Source: an uncultured Gammaproteobacteria bacterium (lineage in GTDB: Bacteria > Patescibacteriota > Patescibacteriia > Buchananbacterales > UBA6539). Taken from it: DNA of 64,000 bases. Shown here piece by piece: positions 19,333 through 44,033 of this stretch. The notes below the pieces were generated by a model. It was not told where the DNA came from and did not search any database. It worked only from the letters and a program-made list of their open reading frames with translations. The position numbers were made by a program, and so were the translations under genes. How positions within the stretch are numbered: position 1 is the stretch's first letter; each line of letters begins with the position of its first letter. The stretch is from the NCBI GenBank assembly GCA_964540635.1, contig CAZINP010000003.1, positions 43,892-107,891 of the forward strand. The letters run 5' to 3'.

Positions 19333-19409
19333 GGGTCTGTAGCTCAGTTGGTTAGAGCGCTGCATTCACATTGCAGAAGTCAGAGGTTCGAGTCCTCTCA
19401 GGCCCACCA
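19333..19409 (+). tRNA. tRNA-Val (anticodon CAC)
   Basis: GGGTCTGTAGCTCAGTTGGTTAGAGC-gctgca-ttCACat-tgcag-...GGTTCGAGTCC...caggccc-A-CCA; CCA encoded. Confidence 0.85.
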
Positions 19410-19446
19410 TTTATTTATAAGAAGGTTTTTTGCGATAAATAGTTTT

Positions 19447-20175
19447 ATGTTAAAAATTGGACATCGTGGCGCCAAAGCTTATGCGCCGGAAAATACAATT
19501 GCCTCTTTCAAAAAAGCGTTAGAATTGGGCGTTGATATGGTGGAATTTGATATTCGCCTGACAAAGGATTTTCATCCGGTTGTAATTCACGATTCGCAAT
19601 TGACGCGTTTAGCGAAGAAAGCTAAAAGAATCAGCCATATAAATCTTGATGAACTTAAAAGTTTGCGCATAAAGGGAGAAGAAGAAATCCCAACCTTGGT
19701 TGAAGTTTTGGAAGTGATTGGCAATAAAATCGCGCTTGATATTGATATAAAAGTAAAAGGCGCCGCCCAGCCTGTCATTCAAACTTTACGCGACAATGGA
19801 ATTGATTTTAGCAATGTGATGATCTCCTCCAATTATGCCGGTGAGTTAAGGATGGCTGAGCAGATGGAGCCGGAGATAACGACAGCTTTAATTTTTCGTT
19901 CCGCCTTTCATTATTATTCATTTTGGCTGTTTATGGATTTTTTAGCGGTCCTCTTTTTGCCGATTACGAAATATTACATAAGTTGGCTGGTTAAGCGCGC
20001 CAATGCCGATTATTTGGTGATTAATCATCATTTGTTAAACAAGAAAAAGGTGGAATGTTTTAAGAAGAATGGCATTAGGATTTGTGCTTGGACGGTTAAT
20101 AACGTTAAAAAAATTAATTATTTAAAAAGCCTCGGCGTCGATGGCATCATAACTAATTATCCTGATCGTTTATGA
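19447..20175 (+). CDS. glycerophosphodiester phosphodiesterase
   Basis: HRGA...ENT...FKKA...GVDMVEFDIRLTKD...VIHD GDPD signature; start chosen at MLKIGHRG, because the longer ORF runs into tRNA-Val. Confidence 0.8.
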   Translation: MLKIGHRGAKAYAPENTIASFKKALELGVDMVEFDIRLTKDFHPVVIHDSQLTRLAKKAKRISHINLDELKSLRIKGEEEIPTLVEVLEVIGNKIALDIDIKVKGAAQPVIQTLRDNGIDFSNVMISSNYAGELRMAEQMEPEITTALIFRSAFHYYSFWLFMDFLAVLFLPITKYYISWLVKRANADYLVINHHLLNKKKVECFKKNGIRICAWTVNNVKKINYLKSLGVDGIITNYPDRL

Positions 20176-20786
20176 TTTTTTTCAAAAAACAAAAAGAACA
20201 AACATTGGCAGGGGGTGAACTGTCTTTTGGCAAGCAAGCCATAATTTTTGTCTGGGAGCTGGTTAAAGTGGTGGTAATTTCCATGGCAATAATAATTCCC
20301 GTCAGATATTATTTAATTAAACCTTTTTATGTGATTGGTTCTTCAATGGAACCGAATTTTGAAAATCATGAATATTTAATTATTGATGAGATTAGTTATC
20401 GTTTTGCTTTACCGCAACGAGGCGATACGGTGGTAATTCATAATCCCTTTAAGTCGGGAGAATATTTTATTAAAAGAGCCATTGGTTTGCCGGGAGAAAA
20501 GATTAAAATCACCGGCGGACATGTCTATATTTATAATACTCAGTATCCGGACGGCGAAAAATTAGTTGAGCCTTATCTTGATCCTGAACTCAAAACTTTA
20601 GGCGAAATTGAGGTGACCCTAAAAGATGATGAATATTATGTATTGGGCGATAACCGAACCGCCAGCTTGGACTCCAGAGTTTTTGGGCCGATTAAAAAAA
20701 CCGGCATCATCGGCCGAACTTTATTGCGCGGCTATCCCTTAAACAGATTTGGTTTGGTAAACGATAAAGTTGATTATAATTTTTAG
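20172..20786 (+). CDS. lepB: signal peptidase I
   Basis: GSSMEP (catalytic Ser), RGD, GDNRTASLDSR boxes of S26 peptidases; 4-nt overlap with the upstream gene. Confidence 0.85.
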   Translation: MIFFKKQKEQTLAGGELSFGKQAIIFVWELVKVVVISMAIIIPVRYYLIKPFYVIGSSMEPNFENHEYLIIDEISYRFALPQRGDTVVIHNPFKSGEYFIKRAIGLPGEKIKITGGHVYIYNTQYPDGEKLVEPYLDPELKTLGEIEVTLKDDEYYVLGDNRTASLDSRVFGPIKKTGIIGRTLLRGYPLNRFGLVNDKVDYNF

Positions 20787-22154: not shown

Positions 22155-22336
22155 TCTACACAAAAATAACTTAAATTTTTTTAGTGCCGACAAAAGTCGG
22201 CACTATTTTTTTTGATTTATTTTTAATTTTTCATTGTAATAATAATTATATTTTGACGTTTGACATTGATATGATAAAATGTTATTGTATAGTTAACCTT
22301 AAAAATTAATTTTCACCGTAAGGAGGTGAGAATATT

Positions 22337-22579
22337 GTGTCAGAAGTAAAACGAAAGAAAAGCGAGACTTTTGAAAGTCTTTTGCGCCGATTTCACAAGA
22401 AACTGCAGCAAAGCGGTCGTTTGATTCAAACGAGAAAAATCCGTTTTCACACTCAGGCCAAGAATCGCAACGCGGTTAAAAAAGAAGCCTTGAGACGCAA
22501 AGAAATTGGCGAAAAACGCGAATATTTGAAGAAAATCGGCAAATTGAAAGACGAATTTTCTCCAAACAGATATCGTTAA
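22337..22579 (+). CDS. rpsU: 30S ribosomal protein S21 (GTG start)
   Basis: KRKKSETFESLLRRFHKK...IRFHTQAKNRNA; strong SD AAGGAGGTG 8 nt upstream of the GTG. Confidence 0.85.
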   Translation: MSEVKRKKSETFESLLRRFHKKLQQSGRLIQTRKIRFHTQAKNRNAVKKEALRRKEIGEKREYLKKIGKLKDEFSPNRYR

Positions 22580-22643: not shown

Positions 22644-23093
22644 ATGGATATCATCAATAAATTAGAAAACGATTATACCCAGGCGTTTAAGAATAAAAAC
22701 GAGCTGGTTATTTTAGTTTTAAGGGGATTAAAAACCGCGATTACAAATGCGGAAATTGCTAAAAATCGCGAGGCTTTAACCGAATTGGAGATAATCAAAT
22801 TATTCAAAACTGAAGTAAAGAGACGAAAAGACGCGATTTTAATGTATGAAAAGGGTGGTCGCCAGGATTTGGCCGATAAAGAAAGACAGGAAGTTGAAAT
22901 TATTAGTCAATATTTGCCGGCTGAGTTGGGCGAAGATGAAATTAAGAAAAAAGTTATTGAAGTTATTGAAAAAACCGGCGCCAAAACACCCGCAGAAGCC
23001 GGAAAAGTTATCGGTGCGGTTGTTAAAGAGCTGGGCGGCAATGCCGATGGTGGTGTTGTTGGTCAAATAGTCAGATCCGAGCTTTCAAAATAG
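22644..23093 (+). CDS. yqeY: GatB/YqeY domain protein
   Basis: YqeY family pattern and the typical rpsU-yqeY synteny. Confidence 0.8.
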   Translation: MDIINKLENDYTQAFKNKNELVILVLRGLKTAITNAEIAKNREALTELEIIKLFKTEVKRRKDAILMYEKGGRQDLADKERQEVEIISQYLPAELGEDEIKKKVIEVIEKTGAKTPAEAGKVIGAVVKELGGNADGGVVGQIVRSELSK

Positions 23094-23185: not shown

Positions 23186-26100
23186 ATGTATAACTTTCAA
23201 AAAGGTTTTTGTTCCCCATTAAGAAATAAAAGGTCTAGAATCGCCCTGATTGTTTTCAGTATGGCGGTTTTATTTTTAGCCGGAATCGCCCCGGCTCTTG
23301 CTACGGACTATGGTTTAAGCTATGGCACTTATTTGGGCTTTGGGACCCAAGACTTGCGGGTTACCATCATGAATATTGTCCGGATATTTTTGGGTTTTTT
23401 GGGTATTATTGCCTTGCTTTTGGTAATTTATGCCGGTTGGCTTTGGATGAGTTCGGCGGGCAATGAAGAAAAAATTACTCAGGCCAAAAATATTTTAAGA
23501 AATACTTTGATTGGTTTGGCAATAATTATGTCAGCCTTTGCCATTGTCAGCTTTATCATTGTCATGCTTACCGGCGGCCTTGGCGGCAACGGCACGATTC
23601 CGGATGTTAACCCGCCGCCATCTGGCTGTGAAAACTGCGGCTACTTGGGGACAGGCATAATTGAAAGTGTTTACCCGGCCCCGATGTCAACTGATAATGA
23701 TCGCGATACAGCTATTATTGTTACCTTTAAAGAAGAAATCAGCCCGGATTCAGTTATTAATGGTGTATCCGCATCGGCTGTTTGCGGCGGTAATCCAAAT
23801 CCGTGCGCCGGCACTCTTAGGGAAATAAGTGGCGAGCCGGTTGTTAAGATATTTAAGCGCGCTGAAACTGAATCCGCTTTTATTCCGACGATTAACGTCA
23901 ATGTTGTTACGGTTGATAAAAAAACTTATCAATTTATCCCGCCGGTTCTAGGTGATTCAGTCAGTAAGAATTGGTATACCGTAAAGTTAACCAATGCCAT
24001 TAGCAAGGCTTCTGACGGCAGCAGTGCTTTTCCCGGTGTTAATAGTTATTTTTCATGGGATTTTGAAGTTGGCACGAAACTTGATGTTTTACCCCCAAAG
24101 ATTACCAGCGTTTTTCCTTATCCTGATAATAATGTTGATGATTATACGCCGGTGGCCGGCCAAAAAGCTCAAGGTTCTGTGGTTGTTGTTTCTCAGCCAA
24201 AAGTTAGTCGCGAACCAAGTGCAACTTTGAGTGTTATTGTTGGGGATACAGATATTGAGCTTAATGGTGTATACAATGGGACTTATGAGGGTACGGCAAC
24301 ATACACTGTTGGTCCAGACAGAACAACTGTTGGGGTTGTCTATAGTCCCACTCTAACCAATGGCGCCGCCTCATTTCCAATTGATAATATGAGAATCACT
24401 TTAGGCGTAGGTGTTAATGTTGTTTTTCAGGAAGACACCTTTGCCGCCGGCGATCAGTTTAGCATTTCTTTTGTGCCAAATACCGAAGCGGATGTTTTGC
24501 AGATTTCAAATAAAATATACAGATTTGTTTCCGGCACGCCCACGGGTGATCAAATTCAGGTTGGTTCAAATATTAATAATACGGCGGCCAATATTGCCAC
24601 CAAAATTCAAAGTGACGGCCAAGCGCCAAAGGTTAATGCCACGGCTTCAGGCGCGACGGTTAGCCTAACGGCTGATGTAGCCGGTTCGGCGGGTAATTAT
24701 ATTAATGTAGCCGGTTCCGGTACTTGGGCTACTATTACCAACTTTGGCGGCGGTGCTAATCAAACAACAAGCGCCGAATGCTCTGGTGCTTGCGATCAAC
24801 CGCGCAATTCGGTAATTAGGCTTGATTTCAGCGAAGGGATTATGCCTTCGGTTGCTTCCGGCAAAAATACAATTACCCAGGAGACAGGCTCGCCAACCGG
24901 TGTTGGTTCCGGACCAAGTTTTAATTATGTTACCGTGCAAGCTGATATAAATAATGACGGCACTTTTTCGTCTAACGAATATATTTCAGGTACATTTACC
25001 CAGAGTAATCAATATAAAACCGTTGAGTTTCTTTCTTTGCAGCCTTGTGCATCTGAGACTAGTGTTGTCACCAATTCTTGCGGTGACCCGATTTATTGTT
25101 TGCCAATCAGACCAAACGCTGACGCTACTCGCTATCGCGTGACCGTAAAGGCTTCATCGCTAAAAGGTTGTACGAATTCAAATGAGTGTTTGGGCTTAAA
25201 ATATGAAAGCGGCGAATTAACCGAAACCTGCACCACCATTCCAAAAGATAAGCAAAACCCCGCAACTACTGACAGGGCTTGCGGTAATAGTAACGGAATA
25301 TTCTATCCTAAAGCGGCAACCGCAATTGATGGTATCGCTGATTTGGCAAGTAATTCATTTGATGGTAATGGTAATGGTTTTTCTCAAGGAACCTTGACTC
25401 AAAGCTTGAGCTGGGCTTTTGCCTTGCATTTGCCAAACGTTACCCAGCGCTGTGATTTGCAGTCTTTGGCGCCGACAAATCCGGCAACAACGGGCCAGGT
25501 CGGTACTAACTGTACCGGCGATCCGGCAATTTGCATTGACGGTACCTGCCGTGATTTGGGCGATGATTTAATTTTTGATTTCTGGATTTCGAGCCGCATC
25601 GATTCCGGTTCGCCGGTAATCATAAAAGTAAATCCATCGGTGCAAGGTTCGGGTTCAAGTTTATTAAGTCCAATTTCTAGCTACTTTAATAAATTATTAA
25701 TGAGCAGCACGGTTAAATCCGGCACAGGCTATAAAGATGGTCGCTGTACTTGTACGGCTGATATTGATTGTGCGGATGCGGATCAAAAGTGTTTACCGGC
25801 CAACGGCACAGTTAAATATTGCGTAAACGTTAATAATCCTCAGATTTATTGTGCGGCCACAAATGAATGCAAAAAGACCGGTACTACTCAGGGATTTTCT
25901 CCGGCTTGTGAAACCAAGGAATACATTACGCTTGTTAACCCTACAACAATCGGTGTTGGTTGGTGGTTAAGCAATATTGGTCAAGATATTAGAATGTGTC
26001 TAAACGAAAGCAATAAATATAAAGAATGCACCGGCAATTCAGATTGCAACCCGGGTGGCGTTTGCTCTCAGGCCGACAGCTATTTTGACCGAAATTTAAT

Positions 26101-26329
26101 CCAGATAAATCACACCCGTTTTGCCGAATCAACCCAGTATGGTGCCAAGGTCGCATCGGGCGTTAAAGATATTTATCAGAATTGTTATATTCCCGGCAAA
26201 GGTCCGCAAGTGGAAAACTGTAATTATCCATATGGCACTAGTAATGGTTGTTGCGCGGTTACGGCTACAGGTGCCAATCCTCAACCGTTTTGCTGCAATG
26301 GTAATCCTCAAGACACACCTTGCAATTAG
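23186..26329 (+). CDS. giant secreted cysteine-rich surface protein 1 (1047 aa) with an N-terminal TrbC/VirB2-like pilin-type two-helix membrane module
   Basis: Signal peptide (cleavage near ALA-TDY), then two hydrophobic helices separated by SSAGNEEKITQAKN. About 1000 aa of extracellular Cys/Gly/Thr-rich sequence follows. The N-terminus is paralogous to that of the next gene. Confidence 0.8.
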   Translation: MYNFQKGFCSPLRNKRSRIALIVFSMAVLFLAGIAPALATDYGLSYGTYLGFGTQDLRVTIMNIVRIFLGFLGIIALLLVIYAGWLWMSSAGNEEKITQAKNILRNTLIGLAIIMSAFAIVSFIIVMLTGGLGGNGTIPDVNPPPSGCENCGYLGTGIIESVYPAPMSTDNDRDTAIIVTFKEEISPDSVINGVSASAVCGGNPNPCAGTLREISGEPVVKIFKRAETESAFIPTINVNVVTVDKKTYQFIPPVLGDSVSKNWYTVKLTNAISKASDGSSAFPGVNSYFSWDFEVGTKLDVLPPKITSVFPYPDNNVDDYTPVAGQKAQGSVVVVSQPKVSREPSATLSVIVGDTDIELNGVYNGTYEGTATYTVGPDRTTVGVVYSPTLTNGAASFPIDNMRITLGVGVNVVFQEDTFAAGDQFSISFVPNTEADVLQISNKIYRFVSGTPTGDQIQVGSNINNTAANIATKIQSDGQAPKVNATASGATVSLTADVAGSAGNYINVAGSGTWATITNFGGGANQTTSAECSGACDQPRNSVIRLDFSEGIMPSVASGKNTITQETGSPTGVGSGPSFNYVTVQADINNDGTFSSNEYISGTFTQSNQYKTVEFLSLQPCASETSVVTNSCGDPIYCLPIRPNADATRYRVTVKASSLKGCTNSNECLGLKYESGELTETCTTIPKDKQNPATTDRACGNSNGIFYPKAATAIDGIADLASNSFDGNGNGFSQGTLTQSLSWAFALHLPNVTQRCDLQSLAPTNPATTGQVGTNCTGDPAICIDGTCRDLGDDLIFDFWISSRIDSGSPVIIKVNPSVQGSGSSLLSPISSYFNKLLMSSTVKSGTGYKDGRCTCTADIDCADADQKCLPANGTVKYCVNVNNPQIYCAATNECKKTGTTQGFSPACETKEYITLVNPTTIGVGWWLSNIGQDIRMCLNESNKYKECTGNSDCNPGGVCSQADSYFDRNLIQINHTRFAESTQYGAKVASGVKDIYQNCYIPGKGPQVENCNYPYGTSNGCCAVTATGANPQPFCCNGNPQDTPCN

Positions 26330-26346
26330 TTTTAGCTTAAATAAGA

Positions 26347-29300
26347 ATGAAGCCTAAAACAAAAATAATCACCAAAAAAATTACTGTGCTGGCACTTTTT
26401 GCCATTGCCATTTTTGCGATTGCCCCCGTGGCTTTGGCTGCCGATTTTGGTTTGGGGTATGGGACGAATTTAGGGTTGGGTACTCAGGATTTGCGCGTGA
26501 CGATTATGAGAGTGGTTCAGGTAGCCTTAGGATTTTTAGGTATAATTGCCATCATATTGTTTATGTATGGCGGATGGCTTTATTTGTCTTCGGCCGGCAA
26601 TGAAGAAAAAATCAGCCGAGGCAAGCAAGTTTTAATTAATGCTGTTATTGGTTTGGTTATAATTTTTACTTCATTTGCCATTGTCAGTTTTATTATAAAT
26701 TTCTTGGGATCGGCAACCGGTTCCCAGCCGCCGCAGGGTTTTACATGTACGGCCAATCAATGTGTTTCTTGCGGTGTAAGGTGCAATGATACCGGCGATG
26801 GCTATGTTTCTACAAGTGATTGCTCAACCCAGGAATACTGTTCTGTCCCGCCAAACCCGGCCTGTCCGAAGCCAGATGATATTATTCCGACTATTTGCCG
26901 CATTGAGCCGGTTAGGGGAGTTGGTTTTGGTGGCGTACCTCAAGGTTACGTCGGTGATTTTGTAACAATTGAAGGTTGGTATTTAGGTATTTTTGAGTCG
27001 GGAGTCAGCCGGGTTAAATTTGATGAAACCGAGGCTTCAATTGCCACTTGTGATAACAATCCGATTTGGTATACCAACGCTAATCGCTATAGCATTATCA
27101 GGGCAATTGTCCCTTCAATTGAATTGGGTACGACAAATGTTTTAATTGAAACAAGCGCTTCTCTTACCAGCAATACAAAACCGTTTATAGTAATTGAAGG
27201 AAATCCCGGTCCCGGCTTGGCCTGCTTGATTCCGCCGAACGGAAAGAACAACGACCTTTTAACCAAAGCCGAAGGTGTTCGTTTTGGTGATGATCCGGAT
27301 ATTTTAGGTGGCTTATTCTTTAATGACAATCAAAAATCAACTTTTGTTTCTTGGTCGGATGAGATTATTAGTCAGCCAACAGTTCCGGCGAATGCGGTTT
27401 CCGGTCAGGTTTATGTTAAAGACGCTGACGGCATTCAAAGCAATGGCGTCTGGTTTACGGTTAGTTGTACCGAGAATAGCAGTTGTGCCAGTGGCTGTTG
27501 CAAGAGCTTTATGTGTCAGCCTGATTCGGCTTGCCAATCGGGCGTGGGCGAAAGTTGTGATAACGATATCAACACGACCAATTGTGAGCCCGGATCAAAT
27601 TGTGCCGATGGTTTAGTTTGTAACAGTAATAGTTGTCTTTGTGATTTACCCGGATATGATCAACCGTGTGATACAAATTTAGATTTGCCACTTTGCCAAG
27701 GTGGCAGTTGTGCGGCGGGTTATTATTGCCAAGAATCAACTTGTACCTGTCAGGAGATTCCAACTTACGGCGAGCCGATTATTTACGGCTTTACGCCAAC
27801 GAGCGGCGCAGTTGGGACTTATGTGACAATTTCCGGCGGTAATTTTGGTCCAAATAAAACTTCAGCGGCCGGTCATGTTTATTTTATTGAAGGTGCGAAT
27901 AAGGTTGAAGCCGATTATACATTAATTAAAGAATGCGCCGATACTTTTTGGCACAATACTCAAATCGTCGTTAAGGTGCCGGCCGGTTTAGTTAACGGCA
28001 ATCAATATATTATTGAGGTTGAAAATAGCGAAGGGAAATTTGATACTTCCGGCTTAAACCCCTCCGTCTTTACGGTTGATGAAAATTTAATTCGTCCGAA
28101 TATTTGTAAGATTACTCCAGACAACGGACCTATTTATCAAGATGTAGAAATCTACGGCGAAAATCTTAACCCGAGCGCTGCGCCAGTCAGCAGTGTCATA
28201 TTTTCGTCAAATGTTGTTCAGAGTAATTTCACTTTATCTACCAATGACATCTTTGCTTCTGTTCCGGCCGGGTCAGTTTCCGGTTTGGTAAAAGCTAAAA
28301 ACAGCAAAGACAATGAGAGTAATGGTTTGTATTTTCAGGTCGGTGCTTGCGTAGTTGGCGGTTGTCAGTCCGGCTATGAGTGCTGCCAGGGTGGCAGATA
28401 CAACTTAAGTTGTATGCCCGAAGGCGGTTGTTATGCGGCAGTCAGTAATTCGTCTTATGATTGGACTTTTACCACCGGCGCCAGACCGGGGAATTGTTCA
28501 AATGATTCAGGTATTTGTATTCCCAATAATGATATGTGTTCGGCCGGTTATACTTGCGATACTCAAACTTGTAATTGCACCCCAACCGGCACGTTTAATT
28601 GCAGTAATAAAGCTTATCCGGTTTGCGAGCCAAACAGTGATCTTTGTCCCGATAATCAGTTTTGCGGCGCAACTTGTACTTGTTTAGCTAAGATCCCATG
28701 CGATGGCAATGTCGCCACCCCGGCTTGTCAGCCAAGCGACGACATTTGCCGCAGTGTTGACTCAAGCCTTTCTTGTGACCCAGAGACTTGTTATTGTGAT
28801 ACCGGATTTAGCGCCACAAAGGCAGCTTATGATTGGACTTTTAATTCTTACACCGAAGGTCCGCAAGTGGTTGATGAATGTAATCGTACTCCCGAATGTG
28901 CCAAGGTTTGTGCCAACGACAGATCGATTACCTGTTCTCAAGACAGTGATTGTGGTGCTGACGGGCCGTGCATCAAAGCCTTTTCCAGTCCTTCGCCAAA
29001 GTATAATCGTGACGGTGAGGTTTATGCCAATTCTCAAATCAGCGTTAGTTTTGACCAAGAGATTCTACCAAGCACCGTTAATTCAAATACCATAAAATTG
29101 TATCGTTGCAATCAAGACTCCGGGTTTTTAAGCGCCAGTTGTTCGGTTATAACTGTTAGTAGTTATTTAGTTTTTGATTGGGATTACGGAATAATTGATG
29201 CTAATGGTGTAATCATCAACCCAGTCAACTCATTAGAAGCGGGTTATTGGTATAAAGCGGAAGTAACCGCCGGTGTCATCGGTCGCAACGGGTTTGCTGC

Positions 29301-32300
29301 CGCTCCTTATTCTTGGCTCTTCAAAATAAAAGCCGGAACAGGCAGTGTTGGCTGTGCGACTTGCCAACCGGGTTATGCTACATTATTTGCTCGATATGAC
29401 GGCAACTGCAGTGGAGTGGGTGATCCCGACTGTCAACCTTACCTTGGTCAGGCTTGGGATCAAGATCACGTTTGTGTCATGTTGAAACCTGAAACTTTAA
29501 CCTGGAATTGGAATTTGTTAAATGAAACCGATAAACGAGCTTCAATATTTAACAGAGCAACGTCGCAACCGGCTTATCCAAACGACGAAGATGCTTATCT
29601 TTCAAGTGTGAGCGGCCAGGGCTTTGATGTTATTGATGTTTATGCCAGAAAGGAAACTTTGACTAATCCGGTTAAGGTGGCTACGGAAATTAATGGTTTG
29701 CCGTCTCAAGCCTATCAGTATGGTGAAAATATTTGCGATTTAAGCGTTGATTTATCAACTCCGATTGTTGTTAAGCGCTGGCCGGATTGTAATGGCGCTT
29801 GTACAAACGCTTCTGTTGGGGCGGCTTTTTCCATCCCCATGAATTCAAGCTCAATTACCGCCAGCGGAGCGGTTGTGCTTTATGCTTGTGCGGATAATGC
29901 CAATTGTCGGCCCGGTTATGGTGTTTGCAGTGTTACCGGCAACTACTGTAATGCGGCCAAAGGAACCGGTTGTGGTACGGGTGAGACCTGCCAGGCCCTT
30001 GATTACGATCAAGTAAGTGTCCCGCTAAACTTTAACCAGCTAGGTGCGGTTGTTAATGGTTATGCGAATTCTTATTTGGCTGATTCGCCCTGTTTTGATA
30101 TAAACGCTGACGGAAAAACCGATTATTGTCTTTTACCAAACACCTATTATAGAGTTATTTTACGAAATACGATTGAAGCAACCAATGGTAAAAAATTAGG
30201 TAAATTAAATTATGACGATGCCCTATATAACGGTTTGAGTGAGCTAGGAATTAAAGATTCTTATTCTTGGGTTTTCAGAACTCAGGATAATATGTGCGCC
30301 CCCGGCCGAATTTCAGTTCAGCCGGAAGAAAGACATATGAGTATTTATGAGGTGCAAAAATACGCTTCTTATCCTTACACCTCGCCGGATAGCTGTGATG
30401 CCCAGGGCCAGCCGTTGATTGCCGCAAGTTTCGTCTGGGAATGGCAATCAAAATATTGCCAGATCGCCGATTTGTTTTCATCTTCATATGGTGGTTATTT
30501 AAATACTCACACCTTTTTTGCGGTGCCTCCCGGTTGCACTAAAGTGACCAGCCAGTACGCTACTTTACGCAGCGGTTGCGGTAATGGTGTTGTTGGCTTG
30601 GGTGAAGATTGTGATGATGGCAACATTTTCAATCAAGATGGTTGCAGTTCAACCTGTCTTAACGAAGGTGTTAGTACAATGCCGAATTATAATTTTTCAT
30701 TTGACGGCATTCCAACAATTTCGTCAAACACCAATGAATTTCCATTTGAAAGTACTTCATTTTCTTTGCTTAGAAATTATCCCCTAAATGGCACTGCCAG
30801 ATCGGGTTTTGGTTCAAGTCAAAATTTAGGTGTAAATAATAGTGGTGTTATTTATGCTCAATCAGACAATGGCCGATCCGGCCTAATGAGAGATAATTGG
30901 GTTAGTGCTGATCATTATTTTGTCAGTGCAAACATTAAACTTCCTCAGAATACTGAAAATATAAATGATGTTGGTTTAATTTTTGGCTATCTCAGTAATA
31001 ATAGCAATTATTTTGCTGCAATCTGGTCAAGCCTTGGTTATTCAGCCATGGCTGACTATCAGCAATTAAAGATAATTAAAGCCGCAAGTGGCCTGCCGCA
31101 AAGTGTTGCTAATACGCAAAAGATTCCGGCCGATCAAAATTGGCACGAAATTAAAGTTGAAGTCATTAATTATGATTTTTCAGCGGATATAAAATTATAT
31201 TTTGATGATAATTTGTATTTAACTTACAAATCAAATACTAGGGTTGTGGGTAATGCCGGTATTTATGCTTATGATACTGATGGTCAGGTTTTATTTGATA
31301 ATCTAAAAATTTACGGGGATGATTTGCCGATTTGCGGCAATGGCATTTTAGAGAAGGGCGAAGAGTGCGAAAAAGATCAAGCTGGAAATTTTGGACCTTA
31401 TTGCACCTTGGGTTGCTTAAATAGTGGAAACGCCGCTTCCGGTGCGGTTTGCGGCAATGGCGTGGTTGAGCCGGGCGAAGAATGCGACAATGGCAACGAG
31501 CCTAATAATAATGAGGCTGACGGTTGTACCAATACTTGTATTTTAAGTGGCTTTACTCTTTCAAATATGTGTGGCAACGGCATCGTTGATAAAGGAGAGG
31601 CTTGCGATAACGGTGACTTTACCAGATACACCTGCCTTAATAATCCAAGTCAGGTTTGTGATCCCAATGATGATACGGCCTGTGGTAATCAGAAAGCTCT
31701 TTGCACTAATCGGGCCAAGTCTGGCGATGGGTGCACCGGTTATTATCAAAGCGTCGCTTTTCCGGAGAATATTTCGGGGCACAGTTGCAGCACGATGACT
31801 GAAACTCAATGTAAAACTTTTTCGGAAACATCAAGTGATAATCACGCTAAGTATTGCTATTGGACTGGTACCGAGTGTCGCATTAGGCCTTGTATTTCAG
31901 AAACCAGCACGGCTCAAGGCAACGACCGCTATGACATTTCCATCTGCGGCAATGGATTGGTGGAGGCTGGTGAAGAGTGTGACTATGGTTCTCTTTGCCA
32001 AACGTCTTACGGCGGGGTGGCAAGATGCACTTCATTAAATGCTTCAACGGTTTGCGCTTCGGGTATTTGCGGCCAGGGGGTTTGTCAGGCAAAAACTTCA
32101 ACTGGATATATTACTAATCAATACGTTGCATGTACCGAGGAAAACGCCGGTGATCTTTGCTATTCCGGCTCTTGTGAGTTGCCGGCAAATTCTTATCTGC
32201 CAGGGTGTACTTCAAATTGTTTAAACGCCGGCTCTGTTTCTGATAATCGGTCACACCAAATCGCTCAAGGCTTAGCTGACGGTCAAACCGAGGTCCAAGC

Positions 32301-35300
32301 TTGGACAAGCGAATTTAAGCCCAGTAGCGGCGGTCCGATGGGAATTGGTAAATTATTTGTTGGCGCTTGGGGTCAGCCGGAAGATTTCTATGTCATTGAT
32401 CAATGGCCAAATTGTTTCACGGCCTGCTTAAACGCTGATATTGGCGCCCAATTCAGCCAATATGTTAATACCGCTTCGCTTACTACTTCAGATAATATCA
32501 AGCTTTATGAGTGCCGCACCGATTCGGGTTGCAATTTGGCTAATGCGACCAAAATATCCGGTTTAAGCGTTATCCCATTTACGATTAAGACCAATTCGGA
32601 TAATCGTATTGATGCGGTTCAACTTTTATTGCCAAATTCTTATAATCCGGTTAACCACGATAATAATCCGTCGACCGCCCCAATTCCGGCACTATTGCCT
32701 GATAGTTATTATCGCGTGGTAATAAGCAAAAATGTCAGGACCGATTCCAATCCGCCAAAGAATTTACAGTATTTAAACTTTAACGACCCAACCGTTGGCT
32801 CCGGTACGGAAAATGATTCATACTCATGGGTTTTCAAAACTCAAAACAAAAATAATTTCTGCGCCCTATCCAGTGTAAAGGTTTTGCCGCAAACCTGGCA
32901 GATGTTTACCGGTAACAAGAGACAATTATATTTCTCACGGCCGATAAGTAAGCCGGATGAATGTTCGGTTAATGGTCAACTTTTGAATCCTTTCTATTTT
33001 GATTGGCGCTGGGATGATGTAGAAATGTCTCAAGATAATGGCAACTTTATCAATGGTGCTGATATATTAATTGACACTTTGGATGAGTTTCTTAAAAAAG
33101 TTATAAATGGTGGAACTCTACCGACGACACCCCCAACCGCTGGCGGATACCTTAAGGACGGTTGTGGTAATGGGGTGGTTGAGTTTGGCGAAGATTGCGA
33201 CCCGGGTTTGCAGTCCATTGAGGGTTGTTCCAATACCTGTCAGCACGCCGGCAGTGGCGCCTGTAGCCCGACGGTAAGTACCAATTGTTGCGGCAATTCA
33301 ATTATTGAACCGGGCGAAGAATGTGAACCTTTTGTTAATGGCGGTTTTTGCACCAGCAATGGTTTGCTGTGTGATCCTTTTCTTGATCCAAACTCTTGTC
33401 CTGGGGGTACCTGTTTATATTTATGTGATAGTAGATGTAGGTTTGCCGGCAATACAAATACCCAAGCCAATTGCGGCGACGGCGTGATTTCACCTATCGA
33501 AATTTGCGACGGTAAACTCGGAGATGATAGCGACGGTTGTTCTGATTATTGCCAACCTTCAGGTGCTGTACCCGCAACCGGCTCAACCTGCGGCAATGGG
33601 ATTATTGAAAAAGGAGAAGAATGCGATGGTGGGGAACTTGCTTCGGGCAATATACCTTTAAGTTTTGATGGTAATAATTGTTCGGGAATCAAAAATAAAA
33701 CCGGCGTAAGCGGCGGTTGCACCAATTATTCAACCGAAACTCAATGCCAGTCTTGGAAGGGTTGTTATTGGAGTGGTAATGAATGTAAACATCGGCCTTG
33801 TATTATTGAGAATCGAAATGTCGCCGTCTGTCGGAATAGTGAAAATTTATCCGTTGATTTCAAACAAAATTATAATGCCTGTAAACCGGGTTATACGTCT
33901 ATTTTTCTAAATACTTTGACCGGAACCTCATTAACCAATCGACCGGTTTGCGGCAATGGCGTGGTTGAGCCGGGCGAAGAATGCGATTTGGGCGGCTGGT
34001 GTATTGATGAAGAAACCAATAATTTTAAGACTTGTACAACTTACAATGCAGTCGGTTGTCGCAACAATATCTGCTTAACTTACAGTTACTATTGTTCGGT
34101 TGATGGTTTGCCCATAGATGGTGCTACCACACTTGGCGCCTGCAGTGCCGAAGGTATTTGCGATAGCAATAAAAATTGTGTTGTTGCCGGTCCCGGTGGT
34201 TCAGAAATAGAATATCCCAAGTCAACATGCACGACAATTGGCGCGGCATGCTCTATTTCCGGGACGGGATATGTCAATGGCTGCTCAAGTAATTGTGTGT
34301 ATAATGGTTCGCGTTATGATGATGGCATTAACGATCCGTATCAAATTGTTCAGTCGGTTGGTGTTTTTTCTAACACTGTTTTGACGGAGGTAAATGAAGA
34401 AATTCGCGCTTGGCACGCTTTGCAACCTGATAGAGTCGGGGTGGGCGAATTAACGATTTTGGCCAGCGCCAACGTACCGTTTACGGTTGTTGGCCATCAG
34501 CCAAAAGCAAGGGGTCTTGATCCAACTAATCAGTGCCGTAACGTCGGCATCTGGGCAATTTTGTCCAGACCGCTTGATGCAACATCTGTTACCGCTGAAA
34601 ATTTATATTTGGGCAAGCAAGGTGTTGAGGATAATCTTATCAAGAGCTATTCGGTTTTACCGGTTTCCGGGTCCTGCAATGAAAATCACCGCTGTGTTTA
34701 TCCTGGTGCGGAAGATAGTCCACTGGAAACCAGTTATTGTTATGTAAATTCCGACTGTGTCGGCAGTAAGATTGTAATAAATGAAATTGAAGGTGTTTAT
34801 TTGGATGGTAATTCTTCTTATGTATTACGTTTTAAACAAAGTTTGAAGGCTCAAGACGGCTCAAATTTGCAGGAGTTAAACTATTCAGACCAAGATCTGA
34901 AAAATTATACAATTTGGGGTTTTGATACAAGCGCTGATTTCTGTTCGTGCAATTATGTTGGTGTCAATATATTAAACACCACCGGGCAGGCTTTTACCAC
35001 CAAGGATTATTTCACTTGTGCCGGTGATAATTGCGGGTCAAATACTTATAAAGTTTTATTTGATGACGACTACAAGCCAAAAGCAATGTGTCGTTTGTCC
35101 GGGCAGGAAGCTAAATTTGCTTGTGACACTTCAAAATCTGCTGTTGATCAATGTGGTACCGGTGGCACCTGCAGTCTTTATAGCGCTATGGCCGGCAATC
35201 AGCATTTGTACAATGCCAACTGTTATGATACCGAATATTCGGAAGGCACAGATATTCCGGTTGGTTTGGGAACTGCTTATGATTTTGCTGAAATTGATCC

Positions 35301-38300
35301 GCAAAAATTAATTTATTTAACAGGAGTTGACGAAAAGACCGTTGACTGTACAAATGTTAATGGTCAGTGTTTGGTTACGCCGGGTGATAATCAGGTTCCG
35401 GCCGGAAAAAATGGTGATTCGCAAGTTATGGTTTCGGGCAAACAATATATGGATAATAACAATCAGATTTGTACCCCAACAGAAGCCAATGCTCAAACTT
35501 GCCTATTGCGTCGGTCAGCTCACCAAACCATTGATATCACCAATTTTATTTGTGATAATCCTTGGCCGGCTCTTGGATCTTTCCCGTATACAGACAGTAA
35601 TGCCAGCGGCAACTCGCCGACAAACAGCGTTACGCCATATTATAATTTCACCATGTATTATTGCCGCGATTACGGCAAAGAAGGTTTTGATGACGATTTG
35701 CCGTCGTTAAATATCAATGGGCCGGTTTTTGGCAGCCGCGGTGATGTCCTAAAAGAATTTTTATTCCCGGTTGGAACCGATGTGGTTATTAATGCCCCCG
35801 GTTCACCAAAGAGGGGTGTTGATTTCTTGAGCAATGACTGCACTCAGGCCGGTATGGGTGGTATCGTGCCAAGCAATACCGATGCTTATCGGTGCAATGT
35901 TAATTCCCATTTCCGTTATAAATTTACGGGCGTGGAGAAGGGTTACTATAAATTAGTCTACCAAACTTATAATTACGGTTCGGGCAGCATGAATTCTCTG
36001 GATTTATATGGTTTGAAGATGTGTGATAAAAATAAAAATGGTTATATAAATACCGGCGGGGCAACCGGGGAAACAACTCCTTGCAACACTCAGGCTGATT
36101 GTGCCAGCTTGGGAACGGGCATTGCCTGCTTGCCGGTAACTCAAGAAATTGATGTATATCACGTTAATGTTAACGATACAGTTCCGATTGCAAGAATATC
36201 AGCTATACCGCGCGCATACGACAATATGCAGTCAAATGAAGTGCCGGTGTTATTAGAGGCGGGTGATCACACTTTTAGATTTAGATGGATTAATGATTGG
36301 AATGTAACAGTAGATGGTAAATATTATGATTCTAATTTGATTATCAATAAGGTTTCATTGATTAAAGTTGAAAATGAAGCAACTTCAGATGCAATCGGCT
36401 TAAGAATTTTACCAAATACGCTGCATCTTTCCGCCTCAACTTGGTATAATACCGGCCTTTGCGGCGCCCAAGTTGGCAGTGGTGTAGAGAATATTTGTTA
36501 TAGCAACAATGATTGCGCCGGCATTAATTTGTTTAAGAACGCAAACTTTGAAGATACAACAAAGCCTTGGGTTTATGAATATAACACGCTTTCGCCAAAT
36601 GTTTACCATAATCAGCCCGGTGAAATTATTGCCGGTGGCAGAAGTGGCAAAGCCGATAAACTTGCTGGTCAAAGCACGGTAACAACCTGGGGTTATCAAA
36701 TAAAATATCCTTCCCCGTTTGATTTGCCGGCAGGAAACTACGTCTATTCGGCTTGGATAAAATCACAAGACGGTGGAAAGGTTGGGATCACGGTTCAAGA
36801 AACAACCGGCTGGAGCCATTTATGCAGCAATAAAGATTGCACGATTAGGGGTGATTCAGTCGTCTGTGCCAATACTGATAACGAGTGGCATAAAGTTACT
36901 TGTACTTTTAGTTTGGCAAAAAAGACACAGGTTCAAATGGCCGTTAGAGCCGACGATGAGGCTAAAACCTTTTTGGTTGATGACGTCTCTCTCACGACGG
37001 GTTGCAATTTTAATTTGCCAAGCCGCGGCACAGCCCAACCTTTGACTTTTGACGGATACAACGCCGCTTCAGACGGCAGAAGCTTATACGTTAATGCCAC
37101 TAATTTTAACGGCACCAATTTGTTTTCAAACATTTTCTTATTATCGTATACTCAAAACGCCAGCGAAAGTACGAAGGAAATCTTCAGGCGTTTATCTGAT
37201 CAAACCAATACTTTGGGCGGCTTGAGCTTTAATGCCAATATGACCAGCCATCGCCTTTGCAGTGGCGTTGGTTTGTACGAGAAGACAAGCTTTATTTGTA
37301 ATCAAGTCGGCGTTGCCACCGATTGCCGTGGATATAACAGTCAATCGCTTTGCGAAAGCGAAGCAAACTTAAAGAATGGCTGTTACTGGAGTGAAACCGA
37401 TAAAATTTGCAGCGGCCGCATGTGTTTGCCGATTTATTGTCAAAGTGATAAAGACTGCCCGAATTTAATTTGCGATAATCAAAAGGGCGGAGCAGTCAGG
37501 GATAATTTGCGTTTCGGCAATTTGCGCGATATGCAGCTGACTTTGGAAAGAAGTTATAAATCAAACGGCAGCTATCCTAAGTTATCAGCCGGTACCTATA
37601 TAGCGTCCACTACTTTTGCGGTTTGGCCGTCTTGGCAGGCAACCTTGGGCAGTGGAATCGGCAGCACCTTGCCTTCTGATCCGTTAAATTATTTTACCGG
37701 TTGTGTGGCCAGTTATTGCGACACCAATGAAAACGGTACACTTGAAACCGCTGAAACCACTTCTTGCTTGCCCTATAATGTTACTTCCTGCAATAACAAG
37801 CCTCAAAATTGTTTGCCGACCGAAGTTGATCCGGATAGAGTAAAAACCTGCTGGGACGAAAAGGCTAAAGAATTTTCTTGCCCGCAAGAAATGTACACTT
37901 ATGCTTATCGTTCAAGTGAAGGCGGCAAGGAGTATGAACTTTATACCAATTTTGAATTTATAACTTCCGGCTGGGTGAGTAACGCCACCGGCTATCAATT
38001 GCCTTTTTATGGCACGCAAGAATGCAAGAAATTAAATTTTGAAATACATCAAACCAGAGATAGGGTTTCAACCCCAATTGAAGATTCCAGCTGTGCCATT
38101 AAGCATTGCTGGGGAGCCTCAGGTATTTTAACCGGCTTAAGGGACGGTTGGACCTATGGTCAGAACAACACAAATGATTGCGAAGGTACCAGGCCGGCGT
38201 GTCCAAGCGGTTATCGCTGTACCGGTGATGCTGATTCGGACGGAGTTTGTGATGAAGGCTTGAGTGATAATTGCGCACCTCTTTTGATGTGTTCGGCTAA

Positions 38301-41300
38301 CGCCAAGGATTGCTATAACCCAGATCAGCGCGACAGCAACGGTGATGGTCGCGGCGATGTTTGCGATCAGACATGTTCGGGCGATAAGGATGGCGATACG
38401 ATTTGTGATAACATTGATAATTGTCCGACAGTCAGAAACACCGATCAACTCGATCACGATGGCGACACAATTGGTGATGCCTGCGATCCGTGTACGGATA
38501 TGGATAGTGATGGTTATTGGGATTATAAGACAGCTGCCAATGACGAAAAAGTTTGCCCTCAAGACAATTGTTCCCCGTTCTATAACGGTTATTGCCAGAG
38601 CAGCGCCGGAGATCGAAACGGTCAACGTTGTCATTCAACCTCGGATTGCGTTGCCGGGTTTAATAATACATGTTTTATCCCATTTACCTCTTCCTTTGGT
38701 GTCTCTAATGATCGTCCAAAATATTGCATTAAAACGGTTGACGGTAAAGAGCTTTTTGCTTCAAAGGAAGTTTGTAGTACTGCTTGTCCCACCGGCTATA
38801 CTTGCAAGCAAGCCTTGGACAGTTCAACCAGGTATTTTAATCCGAACCAAGAAGATTATGATAACAGCGGTCGCGGCTATATTTGCAATGATTGTTTGGA
38901 TTATGATCAGGATGGTTTAGGTGATTGGACCTTTTATGCCAAATCAAGCGATGTCGCAACGGCCGTAAATTTAACCTTTGATCAGAAAGAACATTTTGCC
39001 GGTTGCCGAGCCGATCAAAGAGCATTTGTTGGTTTTGGGACACCGTCACCGGCGACAGATTTAGATAATTGTCCGGGTGGGCCTTATTCAAAGAAGTGCT
39101 ATGATAATTTCGGCGTGGAAACCCTCTGCTCAAATCCGCCGACAAATTGGAGTGATGAAAATAATAATAGTTATGTTAACAGCCAAGCCGATATTGATTT
39201 GAATCATTATGGTGATATCTGTGATCCTTCGGGCGACGGCCGCCTTGACCCGGGCGAGGCCTGTGATTGCGGTGATTTAGCCATTTCTCAAGATGAACAA
39301 AATCCGTTCCAATGTACAACTTTAAATGATGTAGAATGTGCGCATTCAGAAAGATATGGTGATTGCTGCAAGTATTGCGCCACTGATTTGGCCACCGGGC
39401 AGCACTACATTGCTCAATCTTGCGGTCCAAGGCTGGGAGACGGCATTGTTAATGGTAGTGAAGAGTGCGATTGCGGCGAGAACCAAATAATTCGCGACAG
39501 CATTACCGATCCGCCTAATATTGACGCTACCGCCACTTCCGGTATTTCGTGTTTGACTTTTGATACGGCCAGAACCCCCAGAACCATTTTTAATGGAATT
39601 GATTGTGGACCGATAACTCAAAACGGGGTGTTTCAGTGGAGCATGGACGGCTATTCCTGTCAGTGGTGCGATATGGGTAGAATCGAAGAAACTACCGGCC
39701 CATATTTTGGTGATGGGATAGTTGACACGGACGTTTCCGGGGGCTTGGAACAGTGCGATTGCGGTGATGCGGCGCCGATTTCTACAGATACCAACAACTC
39801 TTTCTGTGTCTATGGCACATACAATTATTATGGTGAAACCAGGACCGGCAATTATTGGACTTTAACCGAAACTGCTGTTTTATTTAATGAAACAGAGACG
39901 ATTACCAGAAATATTCCTTGTATCTCAAAATGTTCGTCGTTTAACGGCCAACCCTGCACACCACAGGAAAGATGCGATGGTGTTTGCGGGTATTGCCGGG
40001 CTAATGATACTAACACCGGTAGCATAGAAGACTATTCCGGTCATCTGTGCCTGCCGTGTTCATCAGTAGAATGCAATTCAATTTGCATTAACTTACCAAA
40101 TGACGGTTGTTGCCGTGATGGAGAAACAGCTGATAATGAATATGGCTGTCCGTTTAAGGTGGGTGATCAAATTTTAATAAAAACACGAGAAAATAATACT
40201 GCTTGCGGATCAAACGAAGATAAGCCGTGGTGTCACCCTTCAATTTTCTTGAAAGCTAAGACGCGTTTGGCAACCGATCCGGGGATTTTTGGCGACGGTA
40301 CCTCGGCTTCACCATTTTATTTCTTTAAGGTTTTACCTGGAGATGAAGATGACTGTCGAGTGAACAATAATCGAATTCCTGAATTGGGCAGTGACGTAAA
40401 AACCGGGGATTGTATTAAATTTGAAATTACTTCGATTAATGGTAAAAACAAGGTTTCGATTGGTTCGGACGGCTGGATAACGGTTGGGGATAATTTCGCC
40501 AGCTGGGTTATTAACATTGTTGACGGTATGCCGCTGAAGGTTGGTAGTATAATCTCATTGAAACAGGCTGGTCAGAGTGATGATAAATTTTGGTCAACCA
40601 GGTGGAAAAATGTTGTTACGCTTTTTGGCGAGGATACTCCTGTGGGCACGGCAGATAAGGATCAGGACTGGGAAAAATTTAAAATTTGCAATCGTGCAAA
40701 TATTTGTTCAAACCAGGAGCTTATTCAAGAAACGTGTACGCCGCCCGCCACCGGTGAAGTGGATTCGTGTGCAAATAAATATACCGGCTGCCACCGTTGC
40801 GTAGCAATATCTGAAAACTTAAATATTTGTAGTGAGTACAATTATACTTGGAATCCGGACTTAGTTATAACACCAATTTTGCTGTGCTCTGGTGCTAATC
40901 GTGACTATTGTTGTAATGAGTCTTTGTGTAACGGCAATCCTAATGATTCAGCTAAATATGATATTGATTGTGACGGCGTAAAAATAAATGAGCCAATCAG
41001 TTTGAATGCCGTAGTAGAAAGTAATGGTGTTGATGGTTTTGAATTTTTAACCGGTGGAACAAACTCTTCTGATTATGTTCACACGAAAGGAACTGGTGAA
41101 AACCTTACAAATTATAGGTTTGTGGCAGCTATTTCTCGTGCCTGCAGATCCGATCGGGATACTGTCATAAGAATGCCCGGGGCAGGTAATGCCGTTACTG
41201 GTGGTGGGGACGATAATATTCGTGACGGGGACTGCATTTCGCTTGAAGCTAATGCCGGCGCCTTGGTTATGAACGATGAAAGCTTTTGGAATAATAAAAA

Positions 41301-43286: not shown

Positions 43287-44033
43287 ATGTTTGACCAACC
43301 ATTAAATCCAAATTCTAATCAAAATTCACAACCACAGCCGCCGATGGCGGGCGCGGGTTCGCCTATGCCCAAAAGAGAAATGTTTGACGAGCCGGAAGAT
43401 ATTTTGGGCGATGTTGATCGCATTCAACCGGCTAAACCCCAAGTCCCAAGACCGACGGTTTCTGCTTTTGGCACCAAACCAAGCCCAATTTTAAATCCGT
43501 TAGCTGCCACGCCAGCCATGCCGATGGAGAAAAAATCATCCGGCCTTGGGTTTTTAGCTAACTGGAAAAAGATTTTAGTGGTAATTGTCGGGATCGTTGT
43601 TGTTGGCGGTTTTTTAAGTGCGGCGGGTTATTATGCATTTTCGTTTATTTCTAATTTAACCGCCTCAAAACAACCCGTGGTTAACGTTAATCAAAACACC
43701 AATGCCTCAGTTCCGGTTAATGTTAATACTAATGCTGGCGTCGTTGATCAAACGCCGACCCAGCCCTCAGTAGTTGACACCCAACCGGAAGTAGCAGTTG
43801 ATACCGATAAAGACGGCTTGCTTGATTCAGAAGAAAGATTATATGGCACTGATATAACCAAAGCCGATACTGACAATGATGGCTTAACTGACAGGGACGA
43901 GGTTAAAGTCTTTAAGACCGATCCAAATAATCCGGATACGGACGGAGATACTTATATAGACGGCAAGGAGGTTTTATCTGGTTATGATCCCAAAGGACCG
44001 GGTAAGCTTTTAAAGATCCCGACTGAAGAATAA
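43287..44033 (+). CDS. small type-II membrane protein with TSP3-like Ca-binding repeats (paralog A)
   Basis: Pro-rich N-terminus, one TM (ILVVIVGIVVVGGFL), then DTDKDGLLDSEERLYGTDITKADTDNDGLTDRDEV...DTDGDTYIDGKEVLSGYDPKGPG. Confidence 0.5.
   Translation: MFDQPLNPNSNQNSQPQPPMAGAGSPMPKREMFDEPEDILGDVDRIQPAKPQVPRPTVSAFGTKPSPILNPLAATPAMPMEKKSSGLGFLANWKKILVVIVGIVVVGGFLSAAGYYAFSFISNLTASKQPVVNVNQNTNASVPVNVNTNAGVVDQTPTQPSVVDTQPEVAVDTDKDGLLDSEERLYGTDITKADTDNDGLTDRDEVKVFKTDPNNPDTDGDTYIDGKEVLSGYDPKGPGKLLKIPTEE

Follow-up and report, generated by a model that had tools for sequence, protein, structure and literature searches.

The window analysed here is the whole 64,000-nucleotide (64-kb) stretch of contig CAZINP010000003.1, from an uncultured, ultra-small bacterium of the Patescibacteria, and the subject of this text is a pair of adjacent open reading frames (ORFs) on its forward strand that begin with the same membrane module. 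ORF A (23186-26329, +) encodes a protein of 1,047 residues and ORF B (26347-43260, +) one of 5,637 residues, with a gap of 17 nucleotides between them. The interval 23186-26715, to which a first-pass annotation of this DNA had drawn attention, comprises the whole of ORF A and the first 123 codons of ORF B. Both strings quoted in that annotation are present, at residues 39-128 of ORF A and 31-120 of ORF B, and the residue-by-residue match that it described between the two N-termini is borne out by BLASTP with composition-based statistics, which gives 68 identities over 116 positions (59%) with an E value of 1e-42. For the aligned mature module the identity between A and B is ~66%, the polar motifs GTQDLRVTIM and SSAGNEEKI being identical in both proteins, and the coding DNA of both has ~69% identity, with many differences that are synonymous or fall in third positions. 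The rest of the two proteins, hereafter the cargo, shows no similarity between ORF A and ORF B by BLASTP (best E 0.30), and the paralogy is limited to the first ~130 residues. Moreover, a search for the module on other ORFs, using a profile of both N-termini against the six-frame translation of the 64-kb window, retrieves ORF A and ORF B and no third copy (next E 0.48). That only these two ORFs are found argues that the similarity is not compositional.

According to hydropathy, each protein has exactly three hydrophobic segments, all of them in the first 130 residues, and no further hydrophobic or transmembrane (TM) segment is detected in the remaining ~900 (A) or ~5,500 (B) residues. Translation, hydropathy and charge counts assign the first segment to a predicted signal peptide, comprising residues 1-39 of ORF A (23186..23302, +), with a basic n-region, a hydrophobic core and the sequence APALA, and residues 1-31 of ORF B (26347..26439, +), where it ends in PVALA followed by ADFG. 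The cut in ORF A is predicted before TDYG, the n-region contains 5 K/R, and the AlphaFold2 (AF2) models place the signal-peptide helix of this protein at 12-33/17-38. Also, the AXA motif is kept in stand-alone relatives of the module. Judged from these features, the APALA/PVALA segment represents a signal peptide of Sec type, whose AXA site would be expected to be cleaved.

The module itself follows at 23303..23572 (+) in ORF A (Pfam, NF045849, AF2) and at 26440..26709 (+) in ORF B, where it is paralogous to that of ORF A (Pfam, NF045849, BLASTP). In ORF A it is formed by a predicted extracellular stretch, DYGLSYGTYLGFGTQDLR, a first helix (TM1, ~63-88), the loop SSAGNEEKITQAKNILRN and a second helix (TM2, ~107-129). 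The segment before TM1, predicted to be extracellular, is conserved as D[YF]GL.YGT.LG.GTQDLRVTIM, and the 18-residue loop between the helices (SSAGNEEKITQAKNILRN in A and SSAGNEEKISRGKQVLIN in B, with 3 K/R and 2 D/E) follows the consensus SSAGNEEK(I)..(A/G)K..L.N. An AF2 model of the hairpin, built on a 90-sequence alignment, shows helices at 54-89 and 94-131, with a mean predicted local distance difference test score (pLDDT) of 84-96 per 10-residue block for residues 61-130, and the same hairpin is recovered in the full-length model of ORF A. The two TM helices with a conserved SSAGNEEK loop that had been claimed from the letters are therefore seen by both hydropathy and AF2, and what precedes the cargo is a signal peptide plus a two-helix hairpin instead of a single cleavable signal peptide. 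The earlier topology holds for the hairpin and needs correction in one point, since a Sec-type signal peptide lies ahead of both helices. Given a loop on the inner side, both ends of the mature protein would be outside, and the cargo would be extracellular. The annotation was also right that a type IV pilin class III signal is absent, because no G/FTLIE motif occurs in either N-terminus. Neither ORF has a type IV pilin (N_methyl-type) Pfam match, and the assignment to type IV pilins was discarded given the lack of a prepilin motif and the presence of three hydrophobic segments with an AXA site and two TM helices after the signal peptide.

Regarding the family of the module, both proteins match Pfam PF18895 (T4SS_pilin, where T4SS stands for type IV secretion system), with 38.9 bits for A and 36.4 bits for B against a gathering score of 26.6, and this family is matched by 90 of 90 close relatives. 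For the TrbC/VirB2 family PF04956, ORF B reaches 19.1 bits, under the gathering score of 27.9, and ORF A is without match; 30 of the 90 close relatives match it at E <= 0.01 (best E 2.4e-8). As sequence matches, these hits to PF04956 support a link at the superfamily level only. A third model, NCBIfam NF045849, describes the pilin-like conjugal transfer protein (Mbov_0395) of Mycoplasma integrative and conjugative elements, and gives 42.4 bits for B and 39.3 bits for A, just above and just below its cut-off of 40 bits. The function implied by the 'equivalog' status of NF045849 cannot hold for a chromosomal protein of 5,637 residues. The match fits the published origin of the Patescibacteria T4SS, which descends from the monoderm MPF_FATA class (PMC12102498). 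The proposed check with hidden Markov models (HMMs) for a pilin-like match thus came out in favour, PF18895 being above its gathering score in both proteins, and the resemblance to a conjugative pilin that had been put forward is supported by this family assignment together with the hairpin topology.

The cargoes are different in each protein. In ORF A (23573..26329, +, including the stop codon; Big_5 PF13205, AF2, Foldseek), a Gly/Pro-rich linker at residues 130-147 is followed by a predicted all-beta extracellular region with a Big_5 Ig-like domain, further beta domains and a Cys-rich C-terminus, 36 Cys being counted in the protein. The full-length AF2 model of ORF A, based on a 42-sequence alignment, has a pLDDT of 81.2 and a predicted template modelling score (pTM) of 0.70, with residues 130-141 disordered and beta strands from 159 to 1042. 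In Foldseek, this model is matched best by the S-layer protein SbsC (4uic, E 1.8e-5) and then, weakly, by Ig-chain adhesins. The giant cargo of ORF B (26710..43260, +; Pfam scans and composition), of ~5,500 residues and predicted to be extracellular, holds two IPT/TIG domains, Big_5, DUF4215 Cys-rich repeats and TSP type-3 (TSP3) Ca-binding repeats, along with large regions without a domain match; the protein has 333 Cys and is net acidic. The Cys content of the cargoes is 3.9-6.1%. Tandem Ig-like or beta-sandwich extracellular domains are therefore present in both proteins (Big_5 in A and B, two TIG, DUF4215 and TSP3 in B, and the model of A). On domain content and modelling, both cargoes appear typical of extracellular surface, adhesin or S-layer-like proteins, for which a binding function would be expected.

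The same module is very abundant in databases. An exhaustive search with the module profile returns 61,555 cluster representatives at E <= 1e-3 and 18,167 at 1e-10, and a word-indexed search returns 1,340 proteins, nearly all of the best 120 being stand-alone proteins of 119-125 residues that share the consensus of the module and belong to Buchananbacteria, Falkowbacteria or further Patescibacteria. The 150 top-scoring cluster representatives from the exhaustive search include proteins with a single module at all sizes: 22 have up to 200 residues, 18 have 201-799, 30 have 800-1,499, 11 have 1,500-2,999 and 18 have at least 3,000 (maximum 6,860), the other 51 being tandem multi-module chains. 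Single-module proteins of at least 800 residues account for 59 of these 150, and the module starts at residue 1-96 in every one of them. The public library also holds a protein identical to ORF B (P0309). With the full-length ORF A, ~60 homologues of 850-1,083 residues are found, nearly all with PF18895 and most also with Big_5, which NCBI names 'pilin', 'TrbC/VirB2 family protein' or 'Ig-like domain-containing protein'. A query with residues 1-1,200 of ORF B has many matches of 1,700-2,090 residues carrying PF18895, Big_5, TIG and fn3, one of them labelled by JGI as 'Type IV secretion system pilin/Bacterial Ig-like domain/IPT/TIG domain'. VirB2-type pilins are viewed as small subunits that stand alone, and the fusion, which the first-pass annotation called unusual, deserves that word only in comparison with the canonical VirB2 pilins of 70-130 residues; within Patescibacteria it is common, conserved and already annotated.

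Not only the fusion but also the pairing is recurrent. In a scan of one genome per species, which yielded 76 loci whose ORFs were then scanned with HMMs, the tandem of a medium and a giant gene is present in 27 related loci (28 genomes with the window), from metagenome-assembled genomes (MAGs) labelled Buchanan-, Magasanik- or Parcubacteria. The pair lies in a syntenic block, rpsU-yqeY-[A]-[B]-TSP3-TSP3-ybeY. Matches to S21 and YqeY were each obtained in 33 loci; at the loci with checked positions they lie directly upstream of the module gene, and TSP3-TSP3-YbeY is downstream in every locus that shows the end of the giant. Moreover, two independently fetched relatives keep the order LytR / GDPD - S26 - HisRS - S21 - YqeY - [~1,000 residues] - [giant], the giant of one of them having 5,756 residues with PF18895, LamG and VWA. 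The genomes that carry the pair also hold stand-alone pilins and arrays of up to ~11 divergent pilin genes, and no virB4 was found beside stand-alone pilins or arrays in the ABY1-type genomes examined.

Some other arrangements of the module were observed in these searches. The 51 tandem 'poly-pilin' chains among the best 150 representatives, none of which is encoded in the window, have 2-11 pilin hairpins per polypeptide (for example, P0289 with 1,775 residues and 11 modules, and P0292 with 966 residues and 10 modules; others in P0283-P0292, P0320 and P0327), and may be covalently linked pilin arrays or gene-calling fusions. Arrays of ~10 stand-alone pilin genes were located at L025 6854-13847 and L031 7126-13390, preceded by NTP-transferase and SBP_bac_1 genes and with no virB4 within 10 kb. 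In both arrays the first full-length pilin is close to the module of the window (190-200 bits), and divergence (36-100 bits) is seen in the other genes of the array and in a weaker-scoring copy immediately upstream of that pilin. At L005 3701-7511 (MHIR01000017.1, a Buchananbacteria MAG), an A-type gene is followed by a 208-codon ORF for a stand-alone 'S'-type pilin and no giant, an arrangement that may reflect natural variation or a problem of assembly.

The stand-alone relatives stop 1-2 residues past TM2 and the end of the profile, and both forms share the consensus GLxYGTxxGLGTxDLR, LGFLGI, GNEEK and IGLVIIF. Over 107 aligned columns in 28 genomes, the mean identity between A and B modules is 64.0% in the same genome and 49.5% in different genomes, compared with 50.6% for A against A and 51.5% for B against B from different genomes. 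Of 378 genome pairs, 98% have a higher A-B identity within genomes than between them, and orthologues are more alike than paralogues in close relatives only. The stand-alone 'S' pilins form a separate, more conserved group with a mean identity of 70%. With 59-66% identity kept between the A and B modules and no relation between their cargoes, selection is taken to act on the module. Recent gene conversion was rejected as the cause of the within-genome likeness because the longest identical DNA tract between A and B is at most 25 nucleotides in the 28 genomes, a maximum equal to that of the between-genome control. As a control for composition, fused modules and stand-alone pilins share 53.4% identity when taken from one genome and 50.9% when taken from different ones. 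There is thus moderate evidence, from these identities, that the two hairpins co-evolve, be it through mutual contact, a shared lineage-specific partner or older conversion events.

The surroundings of the pair are those of an ordinary chromosome. Upstream of it the window encodes ParAB, RelA, topoisomerase I, DprA, Der, LytR, GDPD, S26 signal peptidase, HisRS, S21 and YqeY, the last two from the conserved neighbours rpsU (22337-22579, +) and yqeY (22644-23093, +), both assigned by Pfam. Downstream are two TSP3-repeat single-pass membrane proteins (43287-44033 and 44210-45175, both +; Pfam and translations), YbeY (45178-45606, +; Pfam), FtsA, FtsZ, ribonucleotide reductase and others. The two TSP3 proteins are directly 3' of the giant gene and before ybeY also in L035, L046, L050 and L072, and since ORF B has TSP3 repeats too, they may be partners of the giant. 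A strong hairpin resembling an intrinsic terminator follows hisS at 22182-22205 (10-bp stem, T8), and three overlapping promoter-like sites (10/12 matches) precede rpsU at 22253-22293, whereas no convincing terminator on the + strand is found from these sites until after ORF B. This suggests that the transcription unit with both giant genes starts in the 22182-22293 region and makes co-transcription with rpsU and yqeY plausible, so that, judging from these signals, the four genes probably belong to a single transcription unit.

Other observations concern the neighbouring genes. As part of the conserved synteny, the S26 signal peptidase gene (20172-20786, +) precedes the pair by four genes, and may be a housekeeping LepB. 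A tRNA-Val (CAC) at 19333-19409 (+) lies across the TTG codon listed as start of the GDPD ORF (19348-20175, +), and the GDPD homologues have 241 residues against 275 in the window, the real start being probably 3' of the tRNA. Also, a tRNA-Leu(CAA) and two tRNA-Met(CAT) are clustered at 2153-2467, near parAB.

From the homology, topology, architecture, conservation and synteny described above, we infer signal-peptide cleavage, surface exposure, adhesive function and co-assembly as parts of the following model. ORF A and ORF B would be modular VirB2-like pilins, each with a Sec signal peptide probably cut after ALA. The PF18895 hairpin would cross the membrane as TM1, a short charged cytoplasmic loop and TM2, leaving both ends of the mature protein outside the cell, where a flexible Gly/Pro linker would lead to an all-beta, Ig-like, Cys-rich and Ca-binding ectodomain of ~900 (A) or ~5,500 (B) residues. 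In this way, the hairpin would anchor S-layer- or adhesin-type proteins in a Patescibacterium with a cell wall and a single membrane (class ABY1, Buchananbacteria-like). This module is shared with the abundant stand-alone 120-residue pilins of these genomes, with the conserved loop kept. A and B could then associate laterally with each other and with the stand-alone pilins, in a membrane platform or at the end of a short VirB2-type filament, and such an association would couple a surface structure that binds the host or a substrate to a pilin system. Docking of A and B to stand-alone pilins is supported by the N-segment and loop kept in fused and stand-alone forms and by the apparent co-evolution of the A and B modules, so both proteins may co-assemble with them. 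In solved conjugative pili, the N- and C-termini are outside and the loop faces the lumen (bioRxiv 10.64898/2025.12.18.695078), a geometry with which a C-terminal cargo is compatible. Taken together, we consider it likely that two giant surface proteins are anchored in the membrane and assembled through the PF18895 hairpin. A further step would make A and B the long-sought adhesive or contact components of a Patescibacteria VirB2-type apparatus, as an A/B heteromer in the tip or base of a filament, or in a membrane platform, of stand-alone pilins, taking the place of VirB5, the tip adhesin in Gram-negative systems, and of the PrgB-type adhesins in Gram-positive ones; this is advanced tentatively, as a possibility with the odds against it.

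Several results weigh against such a pilin-based interpretation. The module profile does not match solved VirB2 or TraA among all Protein Data Bank (PDB) chain sequences, where it gives two chance matches, a G-protein-coupled receptor and TrpCF. In the same line, Foldseek of the module model against the PDB returns generic helical hairpins (CHMP4B, ATP synthase c) at E >= 0.9, although so small a fold is not discriminating. Without a specific sequence or fold match to solved pilins, the term 'pilin' rests on HMM family labels. Moreover, the 64-kb window contains no T4SS gene (VirB4, VirB6, VirD4, VirB3/PrgI), nor do the related genomes examined have one at up to 10 kb from the pair or from arrays of stand-alone pilins. 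To date, no Patescibacterium has been observed with a VirB2-type pilus, and a review calls the pilus a possibility (PMC12857230). A cargo of 5,500 residues per subunit is sterically incompatible with a helical pilus shaft, which leaves at most the tip, the base or a sparse incorporation. Finally, in the subset of closer relatives the excess of within-genome identity between fused modules shrinks to +5.2 points, against +2.5 points in the composition control, which weakens the co-evolution signal without removing it.

Part of this evidence is what would be expected if the hairpin were a stable two-helix anchor recruited for surface proteins, with no link to a T4SS or a filament, the 'pilin' family perhaps being small membrane proteins with another role. 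This alternative accounts for the absence of T4SS genes near the pair and the stand-alone arrays of ABY1-type genomes, for the position of those arrays after NTP-transferase and solute-binding-protein genes, for the location of the pair in a housekeeping operon and for the generic hairpins of the fold search. Also, the tandem poly-hairpin proteins indicate that the module can act as an ordinary membrane repeat. However, plain anchors usually drift fast, and here the N-segment and the GNEEK loop are kept in fused and stand-alone proteins across orders, while the A and B modules are more alike within than between genomes without conversion tracts. Moreover, homologous pilin genes lie inside an essential T4SS cluster in Saccharibacteria, where VirB2-like pilin arrays are essential in one species (PMC12857230). 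On balance, an anchor devoid of any pilin function seems rather unlikely.

In another scenario, the hairpin would be a pro-region cut at the Gly/Pro linker, comparable to the S26-type trimming of TrbC/VirB2 C-termini, which would free a small pilin and a secreted or S-layer protein. The C-terminal end of the stand-alone pilins coincides exactly with the start of the linker in the fused proteins (...L.xATG), the linker is disordered in the AF2 model, and the S26 signal peptidase gene keeps its position four genes upstream. In RP4, the C-terminal processing of TrbC by the S26/LepB-like TraF is established; a link of the S26 gene of the window to a TrbC-like maturation is speculative. Against this scenario, the linker revealed no conserved cleavage motif, the S26 gene resembles an ordinary housekeeping LepB, and the ordinary signal peptide already present would be enough for export, so that a cleavable leader is regarded as very improbable. 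The last alternative, a non-specific feature such as hydrophobic low complexity or a type IV (class III signal) pilin, could appeal to the richness of both N-termini in I, L, V, G and A, and its probability is practically negligible in view of the BLASTP result with identical polar motifs, the 61,555 cluster representatives that match the profile and the two TM helices, rather than one, after a signal peptide without a prepilin site, both readings being refuted by BLASTP, the PF18895 score, the profile search of the window and hydropathy.

The locus bears on two questions, namely, whether a VirB2-type pilus exists in single-membrane bacteria, especially Patescibacteria, and what mediates their contact with the host. 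In Patescibacteria that parasitise methanogens, genes with a T4SS-pilin domain rank among the unknown genes with the highest expression (PMC10936435), and a survey of the group detected no PrgB-type or T4SS-associated adhesin (PMC12102498). The proteins with a pilin module before ectodomains of 1-7 thousand residues, beside ribosomal and cell-division genes, form a large, conserved and apparently vertically inherited class, and are candidates for the contact apparatus. If A and B were indeed adhesive or contact components of a VirB2-type apparatus, they would be the first 'modular pilin' of the VirB2 family and a direct molecular handle on host recognition by these episymbionts. The observation is, as far as it goes, one of bioinformatic architecture. 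It also carries a warning for annotation, since a label such as 'pilin' or 'TrbC/VirB2 family protein' on a protein of 1,000-6,000 residues covers ~90 residues only. What is known is the module family and the architecture as annotated in databases; in the literature searched, no description was found of a pilin module heading large or giant ectodomain proteins, nor of its fixed pairing with giant cargo inside a housekeeping operon.

Among known systems, the closest to A and B are the PF18895 VirB2-like pilins of Patescibacteria such as Ca. Southlakia epibionticum and Ca. Nanosynbacter lyticus (PMC12102498, PMC10633639), which have in common with them an above-threshold family match, a signal peptide, two TM helices, a short charged loop, divergent paralogues and the same host group. 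Those described have ~120 residues and occur in arrays of 2-11, often beside virB4 (PMC12102498, PMC10633639), whereas A and B, with 1,047 and 5,637 residues, are a fixed pair in the rpsU-yqeY...ybeY block. They depart both from the small stand-alone size (~100-140 residues, ending just after TM2) and from the location in or beside a T4SS cluster, as judged from the 64-kb window and from up to 10 kb in relatives. The TrbC/VirB2/TraA pilins of Gram-negative T4SS (PF04956) have both termini outside, as predicted for A and B, so that a C-terminal extension would point away from the lumen. However, A and B are under the gathering score of that family and without match to solved pilins, reside in cells with one membrane, carry giant cargo, and show no evidence of cyclisation or lipid binding.

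PrgF_B2, a VirB2-like pilin proposed for Gram-positive conjugative T4SS (bioRxiv 10.64898/2025.12.18.695078), and the NF045849 (Mbov_0395) proteins are small two-helix pilin-like proteins from single-membrane (MPF_FATA-type) systems, a class related to the Patescibacteria T4SS. They are stand-alone and encoded in conjugation operons on mobile elements, and A and B, in contrast, are chromosomal, vertically inherited and fused to ectodomains. A and B also resemble giant surface proteins from ultra-small bacteria with an episymbiotic or predatory life, namely those of Vampirococcus lugosii (PMC8080830) and Omnitrophota (10.1101/2023.11.21.568195), which are very long, membrane-associated and rich in interaction domains, with a proposed role in host attachment. 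The passages searched in both reports make no mention of a VirB2-like N-terminal hairpin (PMC8080830, 10.1101/2023.11.21.568195), and the Omnitrophota giants are tied to loci resembling type II secretion systems or type IV pili and to C39 or S8 peptidase domains (10.1101/2023.11.21.568195). The 'novel pilus system' of the candidate phyla radiation (Pam pili, donor-strand exchange) was considered as well and is unrelated to A and B. Lastly, PilB and PilC of Streptococcus sanguinis are reportedly modular type IV pilins in which a pilin module is fused to an adhesin module. Pilins of this type belong to an unrelated superfamily, with a class III signal peptide, one N-terminal helix and the type IV pilus machinery, and their cargo is far smaller than that of A and B; nonetheless, they follow the same design principle, an N-terminal polymerisation or anchor module with a C-terminal binding domain on the filament or at its end.

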